Below are positions 207 to 43,312 of a DNA stretch of 64,000 nucleotides, piece after piece. Below the pieces are notes generated by a model, which was not told the origin of the DNA, ran no database searches, and saw only the letters and a list, made by a program, of their open reading frames with translations. Position numbers and translations under genes: made by a program. This stretch comes from an uncultured bacterium (GTDB lineage: Bacteria > Desulfobacterota_D > UBA1144 > Nemesobacterales > UBA2774), in contig CADEFK010000001.1 of assembly GCA_902826595.1 (NCBI GenBank), forward strand, positions 11,148 through 75,147, in the 5' to 3' direction. Each line of letters begins with the position of its first letter. Position 1 is the stretch's first letter.

Positions 207-1208
207 ATGGGTTCCGGAAGATTAAAGATTATATCGATCGCAGTCCTGATAATCCTGATCCTGGGCGCTTCCACGCTCTTGGGTGTTTACTACTACGTCA
301 ATAATATCCCGACGGTTTCGGAAGATAGCATCGTCGATATCCCGAAGGGCAGTGGCCTGAGGAAAATATCGGCGTTACTCGAGGATGAGGGAGTAGTCGG
401 CAACCGCAGTCTCTTCATGATCTACGTTATCGTAAAGGGGTGGCAGGACAGGCTCAAAGCCGGGGAGTATGGGTTCAAACGGGGCGATACGATGGCGAAA
501 GTGGCCCTGAAACTCTCCTCGGGGGACGTTATTGTCCACAAAGTCACCGTTCCCGAGGGACTTAATGTCAGGGAGACTGCGGCGCTCCTGGGCAGAAGCG
601 GCGTGCTCGATCCGGACGAGTTCCTTACCGCCGCCCGGGACCCGAAGATACTGGATAGCCTGCCAGCACGCTCTGTAACGGGTATCGAGGGGTACCTCTT
701 CCCCGATACATATTCCTATGCCAAAGGGGTTACGGCCGCCGAATTCGTCCGGATGATGGTGAGCAGGTTCAGAACAGTATATGGCTCGCTCGGTGGTTTG
801 AAAAACAGGGTAAACCTCACCGACAACGAAATAATAACGCTTGCCTCCATTATTGAGAAGGAAACAGGCGCCCCTGCGGAGAGGCAGCTCGTTTCGGCCG
901 TTTTTCATAACCGTCTCAGGCTGGGGATGAGGCTCGAGAGCGATCCGACCGTTATTTACGGATTGGGGGAGGATTTCGACGGAAACCTCACGCGAGGGGA
1001 TTTGGATACGATGACGGAGTACAACACCTATCTGATACAAGGGCTTCCGCCGGGACCCATATCGAATCCGGGCAAGGAATCAATAATCGCGGCCTTGAAC
1101 CCGGCCCCCGTAGAATATATCTACTTCGTGTCACGCGGGGACGGAACTCATTATTTCTCGGAGAATTATAAAGACCACCAGAGGGCCGTGTCCGAATATC
1201 AGAGGTAA
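207..1208 (+). CDS. mltG: Endolytic murein transglycosylase MltG (YceG-like family)
   Basis: N-terminal membrane anchor. YceG-like fold with conserved ...YGLGEDFDGNLTRGDLD...YNTYLIQGLPPGPISNPG... block typical of MltG. Confidence 0.85.
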   Translation: MGSGRLKIISIAVLIILILGASTLLGVYYYVNNIPTVSEDSIVDIPKGSGLRKISALLEDEGVVGNRSLFMIYVIVKGWQDRLKAGEYGFKRGDTMAKVALKLSSGDVIVHKVTVPEGLNVRETAALLGRSGVLDPDEFLTAARDPKILDSLPARSVTGIEGYLFPDTYSYAKGVTAAEFVRMMVSRFRTVYGSLGGLKNRVNLTDNEIITLASIIEKETGAPAERQLVSAVFHNRLRLGMRLESDPTVIYGLGEDFDGNLTRGDLDTMTEYNTYLIQGLPPGPISNPGKESIIAALNPAPVEYIYFVSRGDGTHYFSENYKDHQRAVSEYQR

Positions 1209-1212
1209 ATAC

Positions 1213-2193
1213 TTACGCGAATACCTGTCCGAAGGGGTCGACCTGCGACTTGTCTTCGTGTATGGGGGCGAGGAGTTTTTTGTCCCGCCTCTCGATCCTG
1301 ATAGTCCCGTCCTTTCTCCGAGTGGCTATGAACTGTGTCCCGCTCGTCTCGCCCGAGATTTTCTGGAGTATCCTTGGATAATTCTTGGAACCGATGAAAA
1401 TCGAGTGTATGCAGACGCCTAATTTTTTGGCCCTCGTCCTTTCGTCGAGCACATCGCAGTCGCCCGAGGTGGGGATACCGTCAGTGATGAAGAGTATATG
1501 CTTGTTCCTGAGCCCCCGCCCCCTGAACTCCGTCAGAGCGTCCTTGAGCGCGTCTTCGTAATTGGTGTTCCCTGAGCATTCCGTCTTGGAGGCAAGCTCC
1601 AGCATCCACTGGTAGTCCCTCGTGAAGAATTTGGAGTTCCTCTTGTACTTGTAAGAGCGGTGGTTGAATTCCACGTATCCGACCCTCATCTTTTTCGACC
1701 TGGCGAGCTCTACCACGCCCCTGACGACGGACGAGGACCATTCGCTGTAAACGCCCATCATCGAGGTGCTAACGTCCCTTAGGATAGCGATCTCGCCGCC
1801 CATCATCTCCTTTTCGCGCTTATGCACCCTCGGGAGTGTGGGCGTGGTGTATTCCGACCAGAACATGGCCTCGTAGGGATCGACGTCCTCGATCTCGTCG
1901 AAATAGTTCATCCTCTTCCATTTCCTCGGCAGCCCGCCGGGGTGAGGCGCGCGGAGCGCGATACTCCTCTGGAAATTCCCTTCGAGGACCTTCATTATCA
2001 CTTTTACGTTATCGGCCGATTCGAGATTCTTTTTGCCCCCTATCCAGTAATCCTCTTCGTCGCCGGGGTCCGGGGACTTGCTGGCGAATACTTTAGTGGT
2101 CTTCGGGGGCTGTTTTTCGTTCCTCTTGCCGCCGTCGTCCGAGAGCTGGCCCTCCGGGTCAGAAGGAATATTCATATCCTCGGGCGGAGCCAT
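1213..2193 (-). CDS. von Willebrand factor type A (VWA) domain protein, ViaA/YehP-like partner of the adjacent AAA+ ATPase
   Basis: VWA/MIDAS-type block (ILRDVSTSMMG ... HILFITDGIPTSGD). ATG at 2193 is preceded by AAGGAG. Frame stays open upstream to 2469 (see findings). Confidence 0.6.
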   Translation of the reverse strand: MAPPEDMNIPSDPEGQLSDDGGKRNEKQPPKTTKVFASKSPDPGDEEDYWIGGKKNLESADNVKVIMKVLEGNFQRSIALRAPHPGGLPRKWKRMNYFDEIEDVDPYEAMFWSEYTTPTLPRVHKREKEMMGGEIAILRDVSTSMMGVYSEWSSSVVRGVVELARSKKMRVGYVEFNHRSYKYKRNSKFFTRDYQWMLELASKTECSGNTNYEDALKDALTEFRGRGLRNKHILFITDGIPTSGDCDVLDERTRAKKLGVCIHSIFIGSKNYPRILQKISGETSGTQFIATRRKDGTIRIERRDKKLLAPIHEDKSQVDPFGQVFA

Positions 2194-2360
2194 GGAGCTC
2201 TCCTTCTGGATATTTTCCTTGAGTTCTTTTAAGGCCTGAAAGAAGGTCTTGCGGGCTTCGGTGAGCTGGTCCTGGGACTCTTTTTTCCCCTGTTCGTCGG
2301 GGGAATCCTGCTTTTGCTCTTGGGGGGCGTCCTTGTCAAACTCCGAGGACTGCTGCGGCT

Positions 2361-3323
2361 CTAGCTCGCTCCCCCTGTCCCTGTCTTTTTTTTTTTGGAG
2401 GTGAGGTCCTCGATAATTTGGTCGAGCTGCAGGAACACCTCTTCCGGGATCCTGAAAACGGTCATGTATTTAAGAGCGTTCAGGTCCTGGAGCGTGCACG
2501 CGTCCCTCCCGTGGAGAAGCGCGTGCGCCCTCATTATCTTGAGAGACTTTACGAAGAACGTCCTGTCGGATATGAGGGAATTCGTTTCATTGCATCCGTA
2601 GTCTTCTATCAGCGTCGCCACGAAATTCGCGAGCCCTTCCTGGACTTCGTGAGGTATGTCGAGGCTTCCGAGCCTCTTGTAGTATTCATCGAACACTTCC
2701 CTGCTGACCCTGGCCGGCACGTGATATTCAAGCGGCCTCTGCGTGTAGAGCTTTATGACTTCCCTCGCCTGGTCCCATCTCTTCCCGTAAGACAGGCCCT
2801 GAGCGTTTATTTGGAGGACGAACCTGTCGAGGTTGGCCGGATCGAGGGGCTCGTTATAATACTCGTCCGCTGTCGGGTTGCTTGTCGCAATCGCCGTCAG
2901 AAGGGGTATTTCCTCGTCGAAGAACTTTCTTTCGTTAAGGATTCTGAGGAGCACGTTCAGCGATTCGCCCGGCGCCCTGGAAATATCGTCTAGCAGGCAT
3001 ATCTCCGCAGTCAGAATTCCGCCCTTCACTACCTTCTGTTTTATTACCTCGCCCGTGTCTGTGGTCTCTTTTGAAATTACAAGGTCTCCGATCAGCTCCG
3101 AGAGCCTCGTGTCCCTGTGGAGCTGGTAGAAGAAGAATTTAAGCTGCGCGGCCCCGGATATGATCTCGGCCAGCATGGTTTTAGCCGTTCCGGGCGGACC
3201 TTCGACGTATATGTGCTCCCTGGCTATGATACCGAGAAGGAGTGAAATCTTCACCTCCTCGTGCCCTATAACCAGCTTATCCATTTCTTCTTTCAAAGCT
3301 ATAAATGGATTCTGTGATGTCAT
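2361..3323 (-). CDS. MoxR-class AAA+ ATPase (RavA/YehL-like, AAA_5)
   Basis: Walker A GPPGTAKT and Walker B LLDDISRA. Aligns along its length with E. coli RavA AAA core (LLGPPGIAKS...VFLDEIWKA...LLTAINER...). ORF track starts at 3374 (MYNYP...), but Met18 (MTSQNPF, 3323) gives the RavA-like N-terminal length. Confidence 0.7.
   Translation of the reverse strand: MTSQNPFIALKEEMDKLVIGHEEVKISLLLGIIAREHIYVEGPPGTAKTMLAEIISGAAQLKFFFYQLHRDTRLSELIGDLVISKETTDTGEVIKQKVVKGGILTAEICLLDDISRAPGESLNVLLRILNERKFFDEEIPLLTAIATSNPTADEYYNEPLDPANLDRFVLQINAQGLSYGKRWDQAREVIKLYTQRPLEYHVPARVSREVFDEYYKRLGSLDIPHEVQEGLANFVATLIEDYGCNETNSLISDRTFFVKSLKIMRAHALLHGRDACTLQDLNALKYMTVFRIPEEVFLQLDQIIEDLTSKKKKTGTGGAS
2386..2396. repeat. 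Homopolymeric T11/A11 tract at ATPase 3' end / VWA upstream junction
   Basis: 11 consecutive T on + strand. Encodes the KKKK at the ATPase C-terminus. A second T9 tract (3382-3390) sits immediately 5' of the ATPase ORF. Confidence 0.9.
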
Positions 3324-3524
3324 TATAAGGTATTGCCTCCGTAGTAGTCCTTGAGCTATGGGATAATTGTACATAAGGGTCTTTTTTTTTGCAATAATCG
3401 CCGTTTACTCCCCATGGGTGTTCTTTATACAGGAAGTTTGTCCCGCCGCTGTTTCCGGCCGTTTTCAATAATCCGAGAAATGTGATAGGTTTCTAACCTT
3501 AAAATCTAAGGACGGGTAACATAA

Positions 3525-4989: not shown

Positions 4990-5421
4990 ATGAAAGCGTT
5001 TCTTCTCGGGCTCTTAGTGACAGGAACAGCCGTTTTATTCACGGCATCGGTGGCGGATGCTGTCGTATGGCAGCCAATAGGGTTCGGTACGATGGGGGAC
5101 TCTACCAGGTTCAGGGTCTTCGTCGACACGGAAACCATACAGAGTTACGGAGGGAAGGTCCGGTTCTGGCAGGGGCACGTGTTCTATGAAAAGCAGTCTC
5201 TCCCATCCGGCGCCTCGTTCGTCCGTGTTTCTATATCGCGTGTAGTAGACTGCGATGAAAGGGCCGATTCCAATCTCGAAGCGGTATTCTACGGACCGGG
5301 AGGGGAAATCGTCGACAAATACGGGACCCGGGGCGCGATGCAGTTCAGTCCCGTAAAACCGGATACATTGAGCGAAGCGGTTTTAAATTATGTCTGTGAC
5401 TACGTAAAGAAGAACGGTTAG
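4990..5421 (+). CDS. Small secreted protein of unknown function (signal peptide), paralog of the next gene
   Basis: Signal peptide MKAFLLGLLVTGTAVLFTASVADA. Shares W..I....GD...R..V.VF[VL]DT..I....G...FW ... [VI]DC.[DE]R motif with 5431..5865. Confidence 0.5.
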   Translation: MKAFLLGLLVTGTAVLFTASVADAVVWQPIGFGTMGDSTRFRVFVDTETIQSYGGKVRFWQGHVFYEKQSLPSGASFVRVSISRVVDCDERADSNLEAVFYGPGGEIVDKYGTRGAMQFSPVKPDTLSEAVLNYVCDYVKKNG

Positions 5422-5430
5422 GAGCGATTA

Positions 5431-5865
5431 ATGGCTAAAAGGTCCGTCTTGTTTCTATTGATGCTTTTTTCAGTGTTCCTGGTGCTCGCTTCATGCCGGG
5501 GTGAAAAAACCGAACGCGACGGTTGGAAATATGTCAGTGTCATAGGCGACGAAAAGGGCAGAAAGGTAACTGTGTTCCTGGATACGAATAATATCGAGAT
5601 AGACGGGAATAAAAGGAAATTCTGGATCAAATACGTAGCCACAAAAACGGGAGAAGCGGGCAAAGAGGGGGAATATATACGTCAGACCGGCTATTGGGAG
5701 ATCGACTGCTACGACAGGTCGCTCTACAGGTTGGGGGAGGAATACTTCAGCCAGAGCGGGAAGCTCCTGGGCAAAACCGAAAAGAGGGTGCGTGAAGAAT
5801 ACAGCTCGTATTCCTCTCTCGGGGCTAAAATGTCGGACATAGCCTGCAGATACGCGGGGAAATAG
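5431..5865 (+). CDS. Small lipoprotein of unknown function, paralog of the preceding gene
   Basis: Lipobox LVLASC. Same conserved motif set as 4990..5421. Starts 10 nt after the previous stop. Confidence 0.5.
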   Translation: MAKRSVLFLLMLFSVFLVLASCRGEKTERDGWKYVSVIGDEKGRKVTVFLDTNNIEIDGNKRKFWIKYVATKTGEAGKEGEYIRQTGYWEIDCYDRSLYRLGEEYFSQSGKLLGKTEKRVREEYSSYSSLGAKMSDIACRYAGK

Positions 5866-21452: not shown

Positions 21453-21617
21453 CGGGGGGGGAAGGCGCGGGCTCTCCCGTGCGGGTTTGGTTATCGGATA
21501 GCATCGTGTCCAGTCTGATTTATCCCGCCCTTTTTTCAGAAACAAACCATTTGACAGACCGCATTATAAGATGCAAAAATCATAAGTAGCAAATCCGAAT
21601 AACGTGAGGGGTGCAGC

Positions 21618-27915: not shown

Positions 27916-28383
27916 TTAATCGCGTAATACCGGTGCAGGCCGCCGGCAATATTTTTTTTCGATCCCGCTTACTTTATCGATGTTATTTCTTTCATTCTCA
28001 TCGGGGCCCGAGGAGAACCAGGCATCCAGTATCTCTCCGGCAACGACCGTGGAAGTGGCCCTCAAGCTCATGGCGAGAACGTTGGCGTCGTTCCATTTCC
28101 TTGCCCCTTCCGCTGTCCTTGCGTCCGTGCAGAGGGCGGCTCTTATTCCGGGCACTTTGTTTGCAGCGATACTGACCCCGGTCCCTGTCCAGCAGAGGAG
28201 TATACCCTGATCGCAGGCCCCCTCCCTGACCCTTTCCGATACACTCTGGGCTACATCCGCCCACCCGAGCTTCTCGCCTTTGAGCGGCCCGTGGAGCTCG
28301 ACTTCGACACCCTTTTTCCTGAGCTCCTCTATTACAAAGTCAGTCAGATATGTTTTCTCGTCGCTGCCGACCGCTATCTTCAT
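27916..28383 (-). CDS. rpiB: Ribose-5-phosphate isomerase B (RpiB/LacAB family)
   Basis: MKIAVGSDEKTY...; RpiB fold length (155 aa) and motifs. Confidence 0.85.
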   Translation of the reverse strand: MKIAVGSDEKTYLTDFVIEELRKKGVEVELHGPLKGEKLGWADVAQSVSERVREGACDQGILLCWTGTGVSIAANKVPGIRAALCTDARTAEGARKWNDANVLAMSLRATSTVVAGEILDAWFSSGPDENERNNIDKVSGIEKKYCRRPAPVLRD

Positions 28384-36100: not shown

Positions 36101-38682
36101 TCATTACAGTCGAGCGGGAAGGTGTGTACTACACCGAGACGCATACACTCGACGGCAACACCGCGACAATAGAAGTCCCGGTCAGTGAGAAATACAGGCC
36201 AAATTCGTACGTCACGGCCACGCTTGTCAGGGGCGTAAAGGAGCTCGAGCCCGGCTCGGCGGGCAGGGCGTTCGGAGCCATTCCCATAAACGTGGACCGC
36301 ACGGCGAACAAGATAGACGTCAAAATCACGGCGCCCGAGGAAATCAGGCCCCTCACTCCCTTGGAGATAGGGGTCAATACACTTCCGGGCGCGACAGTAA
36401 CGATTGCGGTGGTGGACGAGGGGATACTGCAGCTGATAGACCAGAAAACCGCCGACCCGTTCACGTACTTTTACAGGAAGCTCGCGCTCGAAGTGGCAGC
36501 TTACGACACGTTCTCTCTCCTTTTACCGGACGTGTCACTCGGCTTGTCCCCTCCGGGAGGCGGGTTCGGAGCGAGGAAGGAGATGCAGTTCCTCAGCACC
36601 CAGGGCATAAGGAGGGTAGAGCCGGTAGCCTTCTGGTCGGGCGTGCTGAAAACGGACGCCCAGGGGAAGGCCGTGTTCAAATTCGATACGCCGCAGTTTC
36701 AAGGGGCTGTACGCATTATGGCGGTAGCCGTAAGGGGCGAGGAATTCGGATCGTCCGAGAAATTCACCCGCGTGAAATCCCCTATAGTCCTGCTCCCGAC
36801 AGCGCCGAGGTTCTTTTCGCTGAACGAAAGCGTCGTCATTCCGGTCTCCGTCAGGAACGATACGAAGAAGGACGGCGTATTCACCGTAAATACGGCTATA
36901 ACCGGGCCGGGCTCCGTCGCTCAAATGAAAAGCGGTACCGATGCGGAGAAGCCGACGGAAAATGCAAAGGAGGCAAAAATAGAAGCCGAGATTCCTGACG
37001 GGGGAGAGAAGACACTTTACTTCGTCGTGGATACGGCTGACGAAACAGGGGCGATAAGTCTAAATATCACCGCGTCGGGTAACGACGAATCGACTAGTTC
37101 CGAAATGGATGTTCCGGTTCTCCCCGACCTCCCCATGAACAGGTCGGAGAACATCGGCAGCATAAAAAATGCCGATACGGAGCTCGCAATCGACAATGCA
37201 GAATCTTACCGCGCCGGGACTGTAAACAGGGAACTCTATATAAGCAAGCTCCCTCTTATACAGTTCTCCGGGAAGCTCGAATACCTGCTTCAGTACCCGT
37301 ACGGCTGTCTCGAGCAGGTCACCTCCCGGGTATTCCCGCTCATATACCTGTCCGACATAGTGAAGGAGATCGACCCGGATGTCTTTAAGAAAGCCGACCC
37401 TGCCGCTATGGTGCAGGAAGGGATAAGGCAGATAGGCACGATGCAGGTGGCTGGGGGGGGCTTTTCGCTCTGGCCCGGCGGTGTCGAGCCCGAGCCGTGG
37501 GTGAGCATATACGCCGCGCATTTCCTCGTCGAAGCCCGCAAGGCAGGATATTTCGTCGACGACTCCCTCTATTCGGGAATGATCGAATATCTCAAGAACG
37601 TAGCCAGGGCAAAGCCCGATTACAGCACAGGGGAGCTCGAGAGGGCTGTCTACGCGTTATACGTCTTGAGCCGAGACGGCAAGCCCGATATGAGCACCAT
37701 GGATTTCATCAGGGACCGACACATGGGCGAGCTCACAGTAGAATCGAAGGCGCTCCTGGGCGGCGCATACGCCGCGGCGGGGAACGCGGCCGCGCTCGAA
37801 GAGCTGCTCAAGGGCTTAAACGACGTGGAAGAGGTCGCGAGGCAGACGGGCGGGAATTTCAATTCCACTATCAGGAATCGCGCCATACTTCTTCTCGCGA
37901 TACTCGACGTCAACCCCGAGGACCCGAGGGTCCCCGCTCTCGTCGAACGGTTGTCGAGGGACGCACAGCTGAACGCGTGGTGGACGACACAGGAGAGCTC
38001 TTTCGCTCTCCTGGCAATAGGCCAGTTCGTAAAGAGACAGAGTGAGACCCCGCCATACACAGGGAAGGTGTATGTGGGCGGCGAGGAAAAAGCGACGTTC
38101 AGCAGCGAAGCGATCTTGAGTATCACTGACATTACGGGAGACAAACCAGTTAGCATCAAGATGAACGACGGGTTTAAGGAAGGGAGCGCATTCTATACCT
38201 TAGTTACGAGCGGTTTCCCGACCAGAAAAGGGTTCAAGCCCGTACAGGACGGGCTCCTCGTGGAAAGGGAATTCCTCACGAGGGACGGCGCTCCGCTCGA
38301 TCCGAATAACATTGTGCAGGGCGACCTGGTCGTGGTCAGGACAAAGATACAGAGCGCGTCCGGAAGTCTCCAGAACGTGGTCATAGAGAATCTGCTGCCT
38401 TCCGGGTTCGAGGTGGAAAACCCGAGGCTCAAAACGACGGAGACGCTCTCGTGGGCGACCGGGGACAGCGTAGAGCCTGCATACCTCGACATAAGGGACG
38501 ACCGGATACTCATTTTCACGGACCTGCCGGACGCCAAATGGTACAACTACTACGCTCTCTTGCGAGTCGTCAATCCCGGAACGTTCACGGTCCCGCCCAT
38601 CCAGGCCGAGGCGATGTATTCGCCGAATGTCAGGTACACGGGAAAGCTCGAGAACCCGTTTGTGGTCAAGATGAGACAGTAG
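33163..38682 (+). CDS. yfhM: Bacterial alpha-2-macroglobulin family protein (YfhM-like), 1839 aa, thioester-containing
   Basis: N-terminal signal-anchor. Multi-MG-domain length. Thioester motif YPYGCLEQ (CLEQ at 37306-37317). Followed by pbpC as in the E. coli yfhM-pbpC pair. Confidence 0.85.
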   Translation: MTNSSENKSRFSDPKNIAIALLVLIVLVMGLLLAKNNLPLTGAKKVLTEVSGGVSVVEVKFDTQDNTFVDIIFNKPIGKSEEGEILGRDPAVINPPVNGSWTWKTPNVLSFQASYRFNMATDYTITLKPGNFLKPGQSLGGKTVFEIRTDKFKIEQATVEEDPVPDKKNTVTLVGTLDFNYTVDPTVVARKISLVELPAEKGGEEKLIPVKLITDYWNTTIKWSSDPIEKMAQERELRLIIVGDLTPAEGNVALGDDYVEKIMLGSKDKLAVRSVEPKSEYPRSSLELGFSSSVSPDIAADYISVDPKVKYTVKRVQNDLILTGDFVPGTKYQLAIAKGLPALDDAVLREDYKKEIQFSDLAPKLEFESPGMFLDSKGTHAVVLKSINMESVELTVDRVYLNNIFFLFQSYGYSVWRDEFYQGTVGDFMGGRVSEELDYKIANKKNQEVSTVLDLKKYIPADEPGLYQVGVLPSGEYQGVQKWVLITDIGIVAKKGKDDFLVWTSSFSNLAPVAGADVRVISSQNQLIARGATDSKGIFRAAGLTQKFMDNKPYMVTVQNGADFSFLILDNMGIDTSGLDVGGAVPSAQGYTAYVYGERDIYRPGETVEGVAIVRDSNLNTPSPMPIVLKQKDARGREVKTIKETLNEAGLVSFSIPIPEFAPTGNNTIEVLVGEELVGQYLFQVEEFIPDRIKVKVETEEDNVPLGKELDYDVRSSYLFGPPASGLSVQTLVDLVENPFLPEGYDGYVFTNPDRKYDSKEIFRAESYLDAEGAKKFTVKIPEGLRPASSLQAQISARVQETGGRGVNSLRRVNVDPYPYYLGLKRKTPDEYAEPGKEIEFEYVALAPKGEGTEEVKTGGLKAEFYKDVWNTVLRRTSTGNYNYESKRDSVLLNSMTIDSGASKGSFVFTAPEFGSYRVVLTDPKGGASTQVQFYASGWGFSPWAVENPARIDLGLEKTEYMPGEKARLQVRAPFSGKLLITVEREGVYYTETHTLDGNTATIEVPVSEKYRPNSYVTATLVRGVKELEPGSAGRAFGAIPINVDRTANKIDVKITAPEEIRPLTPLEIGVNTLPGATVTIAVVDEGILQLIDQKTADPFTYFYRKLALEVAAYDTFSLLLPDVSLGLSPPGGGFGARKEMQFLSTQGIRRVEPVAFWSGVLKTDAQGKAVFKFDTPQFQGAVRIMAVAVRGEEFGSSEKFTRVKSPIVLLPTAPRFFSLNESVVIPVSVRNDTKKDGVFTVNTAITGPGSVAQMKSGTDAEKPTENAKEAKIEAEIPDGGEKTLYFVVDTADETGAISLNITASGNDESTSSEMDVPVLPDLPMNRSENIGSIKNADTELAIDNAESYRAGTVNRELYISKLPLIQFSGKLEYLLQYPYGCLEQVTSRVFPLIYLSDIVKEIDPDVFKKADPAAMVQEGIRQIGTMQVAGGGFSLWPGGVEPEPWVSIYAAHFLVEARKAGYFVDDSLYSGMIEYLKNVARAKPDYSTGELERAVYALYVLSRDGKPDMSTMDFIRDRHMGELTVESKALLGGAYAAAGNAAALEELLKGLNDVEEVARQTGGNFNSTIRNRAILLLAILDVNPEDPRVPALVERLSRDAQLNAWWTTQESSFALLAIGQFVKRQSETPPYTGKVYVGGEEKATFSSEAILSITDITGDKPVSIKMNDGFKEGSAFYTLVTSGFPTRKGFKPVQDGLLVEREFLTRDGAPLDPNNIVQGDLVVVRTKIQSASGSLQNVVIENLLPSGFEVENPRLKTTETLSWATGDSVEPAYLDIRDDRILIFTDLPDAKWYNYYALLRVVNPGTFTVPPIQAEAMYSPNVRYTGKLENPFVVKMRQ

Positions 38683-38730: not shown

Positions 38731-41106
38731 ATGCAGAGAGATGCCGGGCGATTAAAAAAAATTGCAGCGATAGTTGTTCTGTCGTCGTCCGCATCCGTTC
38801 TCTCGGCGCTGCTCCTTTTTTTCGCGCTCGATTTCATTATGCCGTTTCCTGTGGAAACCCTGCGAAGGGAGCCGACCGCCGTGATCACGGACAAGGACGG
38901 CAGGCCGCTAAGGTTCTTTCTGCCCGCGGACAAGCGATGGCGCTTCCCCGTGAAGCTCGCGGAGGTTTCCCCGAGGCTTGTAGAAGCCGTGATTGCCTCG
39001 GAGGACAGGTGGTTCCGCAGTCATCCGGGCGTAAACCCTTTGGCTCTTATCAGGGCCCTTTACAGCAATTTAAAAGAAGGAAGGGTCGTATCGGGCGCAT
39101 CGACCATCCCCATGCAGATCGCCCGTATGTCCGACCCCAAGCCGAGGAATATCTTTTCCAAAGCCTTAGAGGCCTTCCGCGCACTTCAATTAAAACGCAT
39201 ATTCAATGATGACGAGCTCCTTGAAATCTACCTCAACCTGGCCCCGTACGGCGGCAATATAGAAGGGGTTGGGGCGGCGTCATATTTTTACTTCGGGAAA
39301 AACCCGCGCGCGCTCACACCGGGCGAGGTTGCGCTGCTCACGGCGCTGCCGCGCTCTCCCGCGGCTTTCGACCCGGTCCGGAACCCGAAGGACTCGGAGA
39401 GAGAAAGGAACAAGGTCCTGGGTCAGCTTGCTGTGAGGGGGGTTATCTCGCCCGGCGAGGCGGCTGAGGGCCGGAAAGAGCCGGTGCCTCGGACAAGGAA
39501 ACCCCAGCCGTTCTCAGCGCCGCACTTCTCGGAATTCGTCTATAGAAACGTTTCGAAAGGCGGCAGCCTCAGGTCTGCGCTCGACCCGTCGATACAAAAG
39601 ATAGCGGAGGAGGTTGCCAGGCGTCATATCGGGCTTTTGAGAAGCGACGGCATAGACAACCTGGCGATAGTCGTTGTAGAGAACGAAACGAGGAAATTGC
39701 GGGCCATGGTGGGGTCGGCGGATTACTTCGATAAAGAGCACTCGGGGCAGGTCAACTACACGCTGGCCAGACGATCCCCGGGATCCGCGCTCAAACCGTT
39801 TCTGTATGCGATGGCCCTCGATGAGGGCATCGCGGTGCCAGGCACCTACGTGCTCGACGTGCCGACCGACTTCTCGGGATATGTGGCGGAGAATTACGAC
39901 AGTAAATACAGGGGCAAGATAACTCTCGAGAACGCGCTGATACTTTCACTGAACGCCCCGGCCGTGAGAATGCTGTCCCAGGTGGGCCTCAAGGATTTCC
40001 ACGATCTCCTTCTAGGGGCCGGCCTCTCGACCCTCGACAGACCGTCTGGCAAATACGGTCTTCCTCTGATATTGGGGGCGGGAGAGGTGAGGCTCCTGGA
40101 CCTGACGAACCTCTACGCGACGCTCGCGGTCGGGGGCGGTCACGGGCCCGTAGTCGTCGCTGAAGAAGGAGCCCATGAGTCTCCTCCTGCCGAATTATTC
40201 TCTCCCGAGGCATCTTACCTTATTACGGAAATACTTACAGGCCTCAAACGCCCCGATATGCCGGCCAACACCTGGGCGCTCACAGAAGACGTCCCCGAGG
40301 TGGCCTGGAAGACGGGCACGTCGTACGGACACCGTGACGCGTGGTCCCTCGGGTTTTCCAGCAAGTACACTGTAGGCGTCTGGGTTGGCAATCCGGACGG
40401 CAGGGGACAGAAAGGCATTTCGGGCTCGGAGCACGCGGCGCCGATTCTATTCGATGTCTTCAGGGGCGTGGAGGGGGACGGCTCGAGGATAAGCAGTCCC
40501 GAAGGGCTCAGGCTCGGCACCATCGAAGTCTGCAGGGAGAGCCACATGCTCCCGACGCCATACTGCGGGGAGAGGGACAGGATCTCGTATATAAAGGGTG
40601 TATCCAGAATACCGAGGGACAACTACTCTAAGAAGATATTTGTAGATTCGGAGACCGGAGATTTGCTTCTTGGCGATTGCATCGGGGAGCGCCCTCACGA
40701 ATCGCGCATCATCACGACCTATCCCCCCGAGCTCGTCGCCTGGTGGATGGCCGAGGGCAAAAAGAGGGATGCCATCCCTCCCCTTAGCGCATACTGTAAC
40801 GACGTTTCTTCCGAGCGCCCGCCCCAAATATTATCGCCCGACAAGGCGACCCCCTACCGCGTGCTCAAGGGCATGCCCGCCGAATATCAGAGGGTCGAGC
40901 TTATAGCCGGCGTAAGCGAGGAGGTTAGTGAGCTCTACTGGTATCAGGACGGGAAGCTCGTTGCCACCACTAGGCCTTACAAGAAAACGTTCATACCTCT
41001 AACGGCCGGCGCACACCGCCTCGTAGTGGTGGATTCCTCGGGGCGTTCCGACAGCATCATGTATAAGGTCGAGAGCCGGGACAGCGTCAAAGTAGTTGAG
41101 AGATAG
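38731..41106 (+). CDS. pbpC: Penicillin-binding protein 1C (bifunctional glycosyltransferase/transpeptidase)
   Basis: GT51 motifs (EDRWFRSHPGVNP, GASTIPMQIAR). Transpeptidase SxxK region. C-terminal PBP1C-type domain. Confidence 0.85.
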   Translation: MQRDAGRLKKIAAIVVLSSSASVLSALLLFFALDFIMPFPVETLRREPTAVITDKDGRPLRFFLPADKRWRFPVKLAEVSPRLVEAVIASEDRWFRSHPGVNPLALIRALYSNLKEGRVVSGASTIPMQIARMSDPKPRNIFSKALEAFRALQLKRIFNDDELLEIYLNLAPYGGNIEGVGAASYFYFGKNPRALTPGEVALLTALPRSPAAFDPVRNPKDSERERNKVLGQLAVRGVISPGEAAEGRKEPVPRTRKPQPFSAPHFSEFVYRNVSKGGSLRSALDPSIQKIAEEVARRHIGLLRSDGIDNLAIVVVENETRKLRAMVGSADYFDKEHSGQVNYTLARRSPGSALKPFLYAMALDEGIAVPGTYVLDVPTDFSGYVAENYDSKYRGKITLENALILSLNAPAVRMLSQVGLKDFHDLLLGAGLSTLDRPSGKYGLPLILGAGEVRLLDLTNLYATLAVGGGHGPVVVAEEGAHESPPAELFSPEASYLITEILTGLKRPDMPANTWALTEDVPEVAWKTGTSYGHRDAWSLGFSSKYTVGVWVGNPDGRGQKGISGSEHAAPILFDVFRGVEGDGSRISSPEGLRLGTIEVCRESHMLPTPYCGERDRISYIKGVSRIPRDNYSKKIFVDSETGDLLLGDCIGERPHESRIITTYPPELVAWWMAEGKKRDAIPPLSAYCNDVSSERPPQILSPDKATPYRVLKGMPAEYQRVELIAGVSEEVSELYWYQDGKLVATTRPYKKTFIPLTAGAHRLVVVDSSGRSDSIMYKVESRDSVKVVER

Positions 41107-41537: not shown

Positions 41538-43312
<1,775 letters not shown>

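Follow-up and report, generated by a model that had tools for sequence, protein, structure and literature searches.

Are two neighbouring open reading frames (ORFs) in the genome of an uncultured bacterium, one for an AAA+ ATPase and the next for a von Willebrand factor A (VWA) protein, two genes or one? They lie on the minus strand of a DNA stretch of 64,000 nucleotides (nt), called the window here, taken from GenBank assembly GCA_902826595.1 (contig CADEFK010000001.1, positions 11,148 to 75,147 of the forward strand; GTDB lineage Bacteria; Desulfobacterota_D; UBA1144; Nemesobacterales; UBA2774). The ATPase ORF ends shortly after a run of 11 A residues (A11), and the VWA frame is already open through this run. 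An initial annotation had drawn attention to the A11 and to a run of nine A residues (A9) near the other end of the ATPase ORF. It had offered a sequencing or assembly error, phase-variable expression or fusion, and coincidence as explanations.

We propose that the two annotated ORFs are one gene, encoding a MoxR-type AAA+ ATPase, a long acidic linker and a VWA domain. The A11 at the domain boundary would be a programmed slip site, giving both the ATPase alone and an ATPase-VWA fusion from this one gene. Taken jointly, these two statements have by our estimate a probability of about 75%. Four observations in the sequences carry them: the site is conserved, it is encoded at the nucleotide level, the −1 frame is under selection as coding sequence, and the gene arrangements with and without the run are complementary.

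Reading frames at the A11 run

The ATPase ORF ends with ACC TCC AAA AAA AAA AAG ACA GGG ACA GGG GGA GCG AGC TAG, in which the A11 (2396–2386, minus strand) lies within TCC AAA AAA AAA AAG for SKKKK. A seven-codon tail, TGTGGAS, follows before the stop TAG at 2363–2361 (minus strand). Between 2469 and the ATG at 2193 the VWA frame stays open over 92 codons that include no ATG, GTG or TTG, and the ORF listing starts it at 2193. The lysine-coding run and the open frame devoid of a start are thus confirmed as initially described, and the conceptual translation agrees that a one-nt change gives an ATPase-VWA fusion. Either a −1 shift or the addition of one A connects ...TSKKKK with DRDRGSELE... in a product of 703 amino acids (aa), with the junction ...TSKKKK-DRDRGSELEPQQSS...SSMAPPEDM.

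The claimed rarity of such homopolymers holds as well. A11 and A9 (3390–3382 on the minus strand, eight bases 5′ of an ATG at 3374) are the longest two of the window, which has a GC content of 53.7%. Under a model of independent bases, 0.01 A/T runs of at least 11 and 0.19 of at least 9 would be expected in it. Five more homopolymers of the window reach 8 nt, three of G/C (21454–21461, 37453–37460 and 41783–41790) and two of A/T (27952–27959 and 38754–38761).

The conceptual fused protein and its family

With the conceptual 703-aa fusion as query, more than 100 single proteins of 630–715 aa are found at 95–100% coverage, the best with 81% identity. They come from Dadabacteria/Thermodesulfobacteriota, Entotheonella/Tectomicrobia and other metagenome-assembled genomes. 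Relatives encode one MoxR-VWA protein of ~700 aa, and the fused form is, as judged from these homologues, the family norm. The junction KKK is invariant in 35 aligned sequences, the fusion and 34 relatives. In the frame from 2469 to 2194, for which homology to VWA proteins had been asked, the part downstream of the run is homologous, and 2194–2385 aligns residue for residue with the linker of the fused orthologues.

The ATPase half matches the Pfam families bpMoxR (2e-21, 76.5 bits against a cut-off of 27), AAA_5 (2e-19, 70.2 bits; 22), AAA_3 (4e-12, 46.6 bits; 27) and AAA_lid_8 (31.5 bits; 22.8). Searched against PDB at E <= 1e-3, the profile of the fusion alignment matches only MoxR 2r44 (1.5e-23) and RavA (2.6e-12), with no chain of BchI or ChlI among the matches. 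The Mg_chelatase model of Pfam reaches 19.4 bits, below its cut-off of 20.3, over residues 35–73 (39 residues of the Walker A region). An identification of the gene as chlD was rejected on these three results.

The VWA part matches Pfam VWA (1.8e-9, 38.5 bits; cut-off 23.8) and also VWA_3, VWA_2 and VWA_CoxE, and its MIDAS motif DVSTS and ITDG are invariant in the alignment. In the ATPase, Walker A is GPPGTAKT, and Walker B is LLDD with Asp in place of the catalytic Glu of the canonical hhhhDE. The LLDD is invariant family-wide, including both paralogues of the two-gene lineages described below. Such an ATPase may be slow or use another catalytic residue.

The linker is acidic and predicted to be disordered, with one conserved helix, LTEARKTFFQALKELKENI (also given as LSEARKTFFQALKELKEN), and contains the stretches DRDRGSELEPQQSSEFDK and TFFQALK. 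A structure model of the fusion, used for domain boundaries only, has a mean pLDDT of 58, with low confidence over the linker at 311–507 and a helix at 353–377. It places the KKKK right after the last AAA+ lid helix (300–308), at the start of the linker and before the VWA fold.

The junction across relatives

One genome per species was scanned, and in the resulting 80 loci (labelled L with a number) the ATPase and VWA halves were placed by tblastn and their frames compared. A pure run of A9 to A12 stands at the junction in 70 of the 80 species-level loci, among them loci as distant as those of Entotheonella (59% identity) and Poribacteria (52%). Nine loci have no junction run. In L057 the contig ends before the junction, and the run was not assessed.

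The VWA half is in the −1 frame, like in the window, in 46 loci, which have A11 (21), A10 (23) or A9 (2). Their zero-frame tails are 2–8 codons long, and the −1 ORF is open over 386–415 codons in every one. The same junction and the same direction, a −1 shift, are needed in all of these and in the window. In 22 other loci the VWA half is in frame (A9 in 6, A10 in 13, A11 in 2 and A12 in 1), and there a one-base shift in either direction terminates within 0–24 codons. Two run-bearing loci, L035 (A10) and L059 (A9), fit neither state cleanly and were set aside; they are probably assembly errors or rare variants.

Seven −1 loci are 91–98% identical to the window and share its context TCC-A11-GACAGGGAC, and about 14 more A11 species in the −1 state belong to the clade. 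A second clade, B, is uniformly A10 and −1. The −1 loci come from both short-read (k141_, NODE_, RIFCS) and long-read (OZ chromosomes, MFD contig_) assemblers, as far as platforms can be told from contig names. An exact-pattern scan of metagenomes added 24 related contigs with A11 (19), A12 (2), A9 (2) or A10 (1). Those with A12 and A9 are in frame, and the length variants belong to distinct lineages with different flanking sequence. Within the A11 clade, L035 (at position 2408) and L099 have A10, with which the fusion would need a +1/−2 shift or two added A's; these may be real variants or assembly errors.

In a neighbour-joining tree the deep branches (Poribacteria-like and Entotheonella) are in frame with A10–A11. 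The in-frame and −1 states have switched at least five times, always through a change in run length, and the run is kept in both. Sister pairs differ by a single A, such as L002 (A12, in frame) and L040 (A11, −1), or L074 (A11, in frame) and L037 (A10, −1). Survival of the run through every switch is expected if the run itself yields mixed frames at expression, so that either DNA state gives both products.

The zero-frame stop lies at a fixed distance after the run, 7 codons in clade A, the A11 clade, and 4 in clade B, although the stop codon varies among TAG, TAA and TGA. In clade A, the −1-frame Leu codon overlapping this stop is CTA or TTA without exception, two codons seldom used for Leu in these genes (~15% together). 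The fixed distance and the short shifted-frame tails of the in-frame loci could fit selection for prompt termination, but overlapping-frame constraint or chance would fit them equally, and we do not count them as evidence.

Selection on the run and the linker

The three invariant lysine codons of the junction are AAA in all 68 loci analysed. Outside the run, lysine codons are AAA in only 49.5% (1734 AAA vs 1771 AAG), and in Entotheonella in 19% (6 AAA vs 25 AAG). For all junction codons to be AAA, the naive joint probability is 1e-71, with shared ancestry ignored. The shortest run anywhere in the family has 9 A's. Judging by this codon usage, the run is selected as nucleotides and not only as lysines.

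The linker evolves, by its pattern of diversity, as coding sequence in the −1 frame. In clade A (20 sequences), diversity at codon positions 1/2/3 is 0.21/0.13/0.47 in the 64-codon linker and 0.12/0.07/0.52 in the rest of the VWA part. The corresponding values in clade B are 0.066/0.043/0.33 and 0.061/0.052/0.34. Linker lengths of 64–73 codons differ by whole codons only, all indels being frame-preserving. As the linker contains no start codon, translation can enter it only from the ATPase frame. Coincidence, which the initial annotation had kept as an option, can be set aside for a linker that is homologous to that of the fused orthologues and evolves as coding sequence.

One gene with the run or two genes without it

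All nine run-less loci (L045, L047–L050, L055, L056, L058 and L060; SAR324, Lambdaproteobacteria and others) have a fused ATPase-VWA gene, whose junction is acidic and devoid of KKK, and a stand-alone ATPase gene 200–470 nt downstream. The stand-alone copy is 52–65% identical to the window ATPase and the fused copy 41–43%. Likewise, the stand-alone Walker A, GPPGMAKT, resembles that of the window, whereas the fused copy has GEPGCAKT. A second ATPase gene is present within the 3-kb flanks of none of the 71 loci outside this group, and none is found in the 64-kb window. It seems that the cell needs both the ATPase alone and the ATPase-VWA, made either by two genes or by one gene with a slip site.

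Proposed slippage mechanism

Standard decoding would give the 320-aa ATPase alone, with the stop seven codons past the run. In a fraction of expression events a shift by one base would give the 703-aa ATPase-VWA fusion of ~78 kDa. The purpose would be a fixed ratio of two proteins encoded by a single gene.

Two routes to the shift are conceivable. Either RNA polymerase stutters on the A run and adds one A to the mRNA, or the ribosome slips −1 on A_AAA_AAG, where the dnaX-type phasing would make tandem slippage possible. A third contribution might come from ribosomes that slide on poly(A). We favour polymerase slippage as the main route, perhaps with a share of slipping or sliding ribosomes at the same run. 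All runs have at least 9 A's, the length of the RNA:DNA hybrid, their phase relative to the frame varies (0, 1 or 2), and there is no conserved downstream RNA structure; all three features favour the polymerase. The A10 of L035 and L099 within the A11 clade would need two added A's, which polymerase stuttering can supply and a −1 ribosomal shift cannot, though this is anecdotal.

A 3′ structure is typical of efficient −1 ribosomal frameshifting and is not required for polymerase slippage. RNAalifold gave 0 conserved pairs in clade A (13 junctions) and a weak 7-bp hairpin of −2.6 kcal/mol in clade B (10 junctions). The local fold of the window junction as a single sequence is not significant (z = −1.45) and has no Rfam match. 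Two 5′ elements were considered and dropped: a GAGG/CCUC hairpin just upstream of the window run is not conserved in relatives, and GAGG ~15 nt from the heptamer, as a stimulator resembling a Shine-Dalgarno (SD) sequence, stems from conserved E-D codons and has no independent weight. No tRNA genes are found in the 64-kb window.

Runs of this length are known to be slippery. Polymerase slippage is efficient at runs of 9 A or T and is used by Thermus dnaX (PMC5009743). In E. coli, chlD cassettes with 7, 9 and 11 A's gave 10, 40 and 63% frameshifting (PMC3711429). Motifs of the A_AAA_AAG type have a role in both dnaX and chlD (PMC5009743, PMC3711429).

Alternative explanations

Run length could also act in the DNA itself, with replication slippage toggling between a split (OFF) and a fused (ON) allele and the assemblies showing the majority allele. 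Tracts of 9–12 bases are hypermutable (general knowledge; PMC3711429), the 24 related metagenome contigs include all lengths from A9 to A12, and the frame state has switched at least five times on the tree. However, the 'OFF' length is fixed over clades at 60–98% amino-acid identity (46 species) with the downstream ORF under purifying selection, the length variants come from distinct lineages and not from one population, and the 22 in-frame species keep the run as well. The product is a cytoplasmic AAA+/VWA protein encoded next to mltG, not by a surface or host-interaction gene, and the second ATPase gene of the run-less clade points to a need for two products, not to an on/off switch. We therefore consider phase variation unlikely. 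What stands of this option is that run length sets the frame and that A9, A10 and A12 variants exist, but the evidence favours a fixed and conserved slippage at the RNA or ribosome level rather than switching in the DNA. A miscounted homopolymer is a further option, with A12 (or A9) and an unbroken fused gene in the real genome. Several platforms are prone to homopolymer errors, and close in-frame relatives with A12 and A9 exist. Such an error is very unlikely all the same, as the A11 −1 state recurs in the seven closest genomes, in the ~14 others of the clade and in 19/24 metagenome contigs, the A10 −1 clade is uniform across both assembly types, and the 326-aa VWA ORF has a 90% cluster of 73 members, publicly named 'vWA domain-containing protein' or 'hypothetical protein'. 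The initial annotation was right in suspecting a naturally fused AAA-VWA protein, which relatives do have, but a sequencing error does not account for the same −1 arrangement in 46 other species-level genomes.

Gene fission, with the frameshift splitting a gene that was ancestrally fused, would instead make the locus an ordinary two-gene operon of MoxR and VWA, with the VWA protein translated from ATG 2193 and the linker left untranslated. In the window, AAGGAG does stand seven bases upstream of this ATG, as had been pointed out, and the public annotation is a separate 326-aa VWA protein. MoxR ATPases are commonly encoded beside separate VWA genes. Yet the Met, present in 42/46 −1 loci, is equally conserved in the in-frame genes (9/12), and only 9 of those 42 have an SD-like motif ahead of it. 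From the other four −1 loci the Met is missing; L037 (GGT) and L052 (TTA), the two inspected, offer no start codon at this position. Moreover, the linker shows a coding-type constraint, with the third position most variable, and is stop-free in all 46 −1 species, and fission gives no reason for the run to stay pure AAA. Fission is thus quite unlikely, and the AAGGAG appears to be a local feature of the window that is not conserved among relatives and does not explain the conservation, though some internal initiation may occur. Lastly, a homopolymer frameshift is a common inactivating lesion, and the VWA half could be a decaying pseudogene whose expression was lost. With an intact MIDAS motif, 386–415 open codons and strong purifying selection in 46 species (0.12/0.07/0.52), this is contradicted by the conservation data and hardly credible.

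The programmed slip site has its own difficulties. Both the existence of slippage and its efficiency, as well as the level at which it acts (RNA or ribosome), are inferences. Unless slippage is near 50%, the product ratios of the in-frame and −1 states ought to differ strongly, and yet both states are tolerated. The run-less loci form one clade and amount to about one evolutionary event, and the second ATPase copies were sought within the 3-kb flanks only. Homopolymers may be miscounted in long-read assemblies; L059 looks error-ridden, and L035 has its A10 within the A11 clade. In the window species, AAGGAG with ATG 2193 may allow some independent initiation of a VWA-only protein. All of these points weigh against the slip site.

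Promoter, start codon and neighbouring genes

The A9 lies in a predicted sigma-70-like promoter (Table 1), which a promoter scan found with 9/12 matches. The A9 covers the last bases of the −35 hexamer and continues into the start of the spacer. The promoter block TTATTGCAAAAAAAA..CTTATGTACAATTA, or TTATTGCAAAAAAAA(A)nnnnCTTATGTACAATTA when written with its A run, is conserved in 24 aligned sequences with diverged flanks. The longest A run in the block is 5–9 among them while its total length is constant, so the differences in A count are substitutions and not slippage. As read from this alignment, the A9 serves as a spacer element of the promoter and is not involved in frame switching.

The orthologues start at ATG 3323 (MTSQNPF...), and ATG 3374 sits inside the promoter. 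The mechanical ORF call (2361–3374, 337 aa) makes the ATPase 17 codons too long, reaching into the promoter of the gene itself, and annotations using ATG 3374 as the start would be wrong. The A9 had been described as immediately 5′ of the ATPase ATG, which is true for ATG 3374 but not for the true start at 3323, ~59 nt away. The two runs do not bracket the gene as a pair either, since the A9 belongs to a promoter of constant spacing.

The block, as TTATTGCA, an A-rich spacer and CTTATGTACAATTA, is kept together with the GGAGG upstream of the gene in L012–L028, L036, L038–L040, L001 and L002, which is unusually tight for a promoter. There could be a regulatory binding site over the promoter A tract.

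The neighbours of the gene are YceG/MltG, a Na:Ala symporter and two Adhesin_E-like genes, and no cobN, chlH or beta-propeller gene stands beside the locus. The YceG/MltG gene (207–1208, plus strand) is convergent to the ATPase-VWA gene, and this neighbourhood is kept in 58 related loci with no evident functional link. Two tandem small ORFs on the plus strand, 4990–5421 (143 aa) and 5431–5865 (144 aa), both match Pfam Adhesin_E (surface-adhesin protein E), and this paralogue pair adjoins the Na:Ala symporter. A role in a defence system was dismissed, PADLOC having given a marginal match to IetA only.

Table 1. Features of the ATPase-VWA locus, numbered from the first nt of the window
Feature	Position	Strand	Remarks
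Predicted sigma-70-like promoter	3366..3394	minus	TTGCAA 3394-3389, 17-nt spacer, TACAAT 3371-3366
GGAGG Shine-Dalgarno	3336..3340	minus	12 nt upstream of ATG 3323; fixed distance in 24/24 aligned upstream regions
MoxR-type AAA+ ATPase ORF, standard decoding	2361..3323	minus	320 aa; start ATG 3323 from orthologue alignment
Walker A	3200-3177	minus	GPPGTAKT
Walker B	2996-2985	minus	LLDD
A11 homopolymer, candidate slip site	2386..2396	minus	KKK and first two bases of fourth Lys codon; AAA+ lid/linker boundary
A_AAA_AAG heptamer, ATPase frame	2385..2391	minus	reads AAAAAAG; classic −1 ribosomal slippery motif as in E. coli dnaX
Linker	2194..2385	minus	64 codons, −1 frame relative to ATPase; no start codon of its own
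VWA part, listed as separate ORF	1213..2193	minus	326 aa; MIDAS DVSTS 1776-1762; stop TAA 1215-1213
Whole recoded gene (proposed)	1213..3323	minus	703-aa MoxR-linker-VWA fusion by −1 shift or one extra mRNA A at 2385/2386

Significance and comparison with known systems

A more far-reaching idea, possible but doubtful, is that evolution tunes the product ratio through the tract: a run with the VWA half in frame would give mostly the fusion, and a run one base shorter mostly the ATPase. The homopolymer would then be an evolutionary, and perhaps population-level, dial for the stoichiometry of a complex, turned at least five times. If so, many 'MoxR + VWA' pairs that are given as separate or frameshifted genes could really be recoded genes under a wrong annotation. 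Gene callers miss what is probably the main functional product, the ~78-kDa fusion, in Dadabacteria and the related Thermodesulfobacteriota. The family would also add a large and deeply conserved case (~70 species-level loci in several candidate phyla) to the few cellular, non-mobile bacterial genes with poly-A slippage.

A full-text search of the available library found no paper that links MoxR or VWA with transcriptional slippage or realignment, which is absence of evidence there and not proof of novelty.

The long in-gene homopolymer that sets the frame and its length variants among relatives are reminiscent of the contingency loci of Neisseria, Haemophilus and Campylobacter. Unlike in those, the out-of-frame length here does not change over dozens of species, the in-frame lineages keep the tract, and the gene itself is a cytoplasmic, housekeeping-like one.

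The MoxR-VWA pairs RavA-ViaA, CbbQ-CbbO, NorQ-NorD and CoxD-CoxE share the MoxR-type ATPase and a VWA protein with an intact MIDAS DxSxS. In these pairs an ATPase hexamer works with fewer VWA adaptor subunits. By analogy, a fusion product at a low ratio would fit such a hexamer with a few adaptors. The known systems have separate ATPase and VWA genes, whereas here there is one gene, fused or slip-joined, with LLDD instead of hhhhDE at Walker B and no linked operon. The ternary system of MoxR, vWA and beta-propeller (the Pfam bpMoxR context) has a linked beta-propeller gene; none flanks this locus.

In dnaX, the tau and gamma products share an N-terminal AAA+ module through a poly-A site, like the two products proposed here (PMC5009743, PMC3711429). 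Its variants use a −1 shift on A_AAA_AAG in E. coli, slippage on A9 in Thermus thermophilus and a two-ORF arrangement with A7–A10 of the Chlorobi type (PMC5009743, PMC3711429). The long product is known both in frame and shift-dependent, and stops are close by in the alternative frames, also as here. However, dnaX is an unrelated clamp-loader subunit gene, and a VWA domain forms the extension here. Defined stimulators, a 5′ SD-like sequence and a 3′ hairpin, belong to E. coli dnaX, and neither is conserved in the present family.

The closest likeness is to the frameshifted chlD (fs-chlD) of the 'magnesium chelatase' cluster (Antonov et al. 2013, PMC3711429; Kuznetsov et al. 2022, PMC9227772). 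It too encodes AAA+, linker and VWA in one gene with a poly-A of 7–11 A's (A_AAA_AAR) between the AAA+ and VWA parts, where a −1 shift is needed. It is annotated as two adjacent genes of ~1000 nt, and other species have fused in-frame homologues. A small subunit (AAA+ only) and a medium one (AAA+-VWA) are the proposed outcome (PMC3711429, PMC5009743, PMC9227772), and lineages with a separate small-subunit gene lack the signal. The differences are that the AAA+ part is of the ChlI/BchI type in chlD and of the MoxR/RavA type here, that mltG and the Na:Ala symporter adjoin here instead of cobN or chlH, that chlD signals are described as usually coming with a downstream stimulatory structure, of which none is conserved here, and that chlD runs start from 7 A's while those here never fall below 9.

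This parallel, found in another AAA+ clade, hints at a common principle, namely an AAA+ ring of plain subunits with a few VWA-adaptor subunits. For this principle, the loci with a run and one gene or no run and two genes make a natural experiment. More tentatively, control of the ATPase to ATPase-VWA ratio by a slip site could be a general solution that arose independently in the ChlI/ChlD chelatases and the MoxR-VWA family, tuned by one-base changes of the tract; we regard this as possible but doubtful. From the comparative evidence, the locus itself is best read as the poly-A recoding known from dnaX and chlD, here in the MoxR-VWA family.

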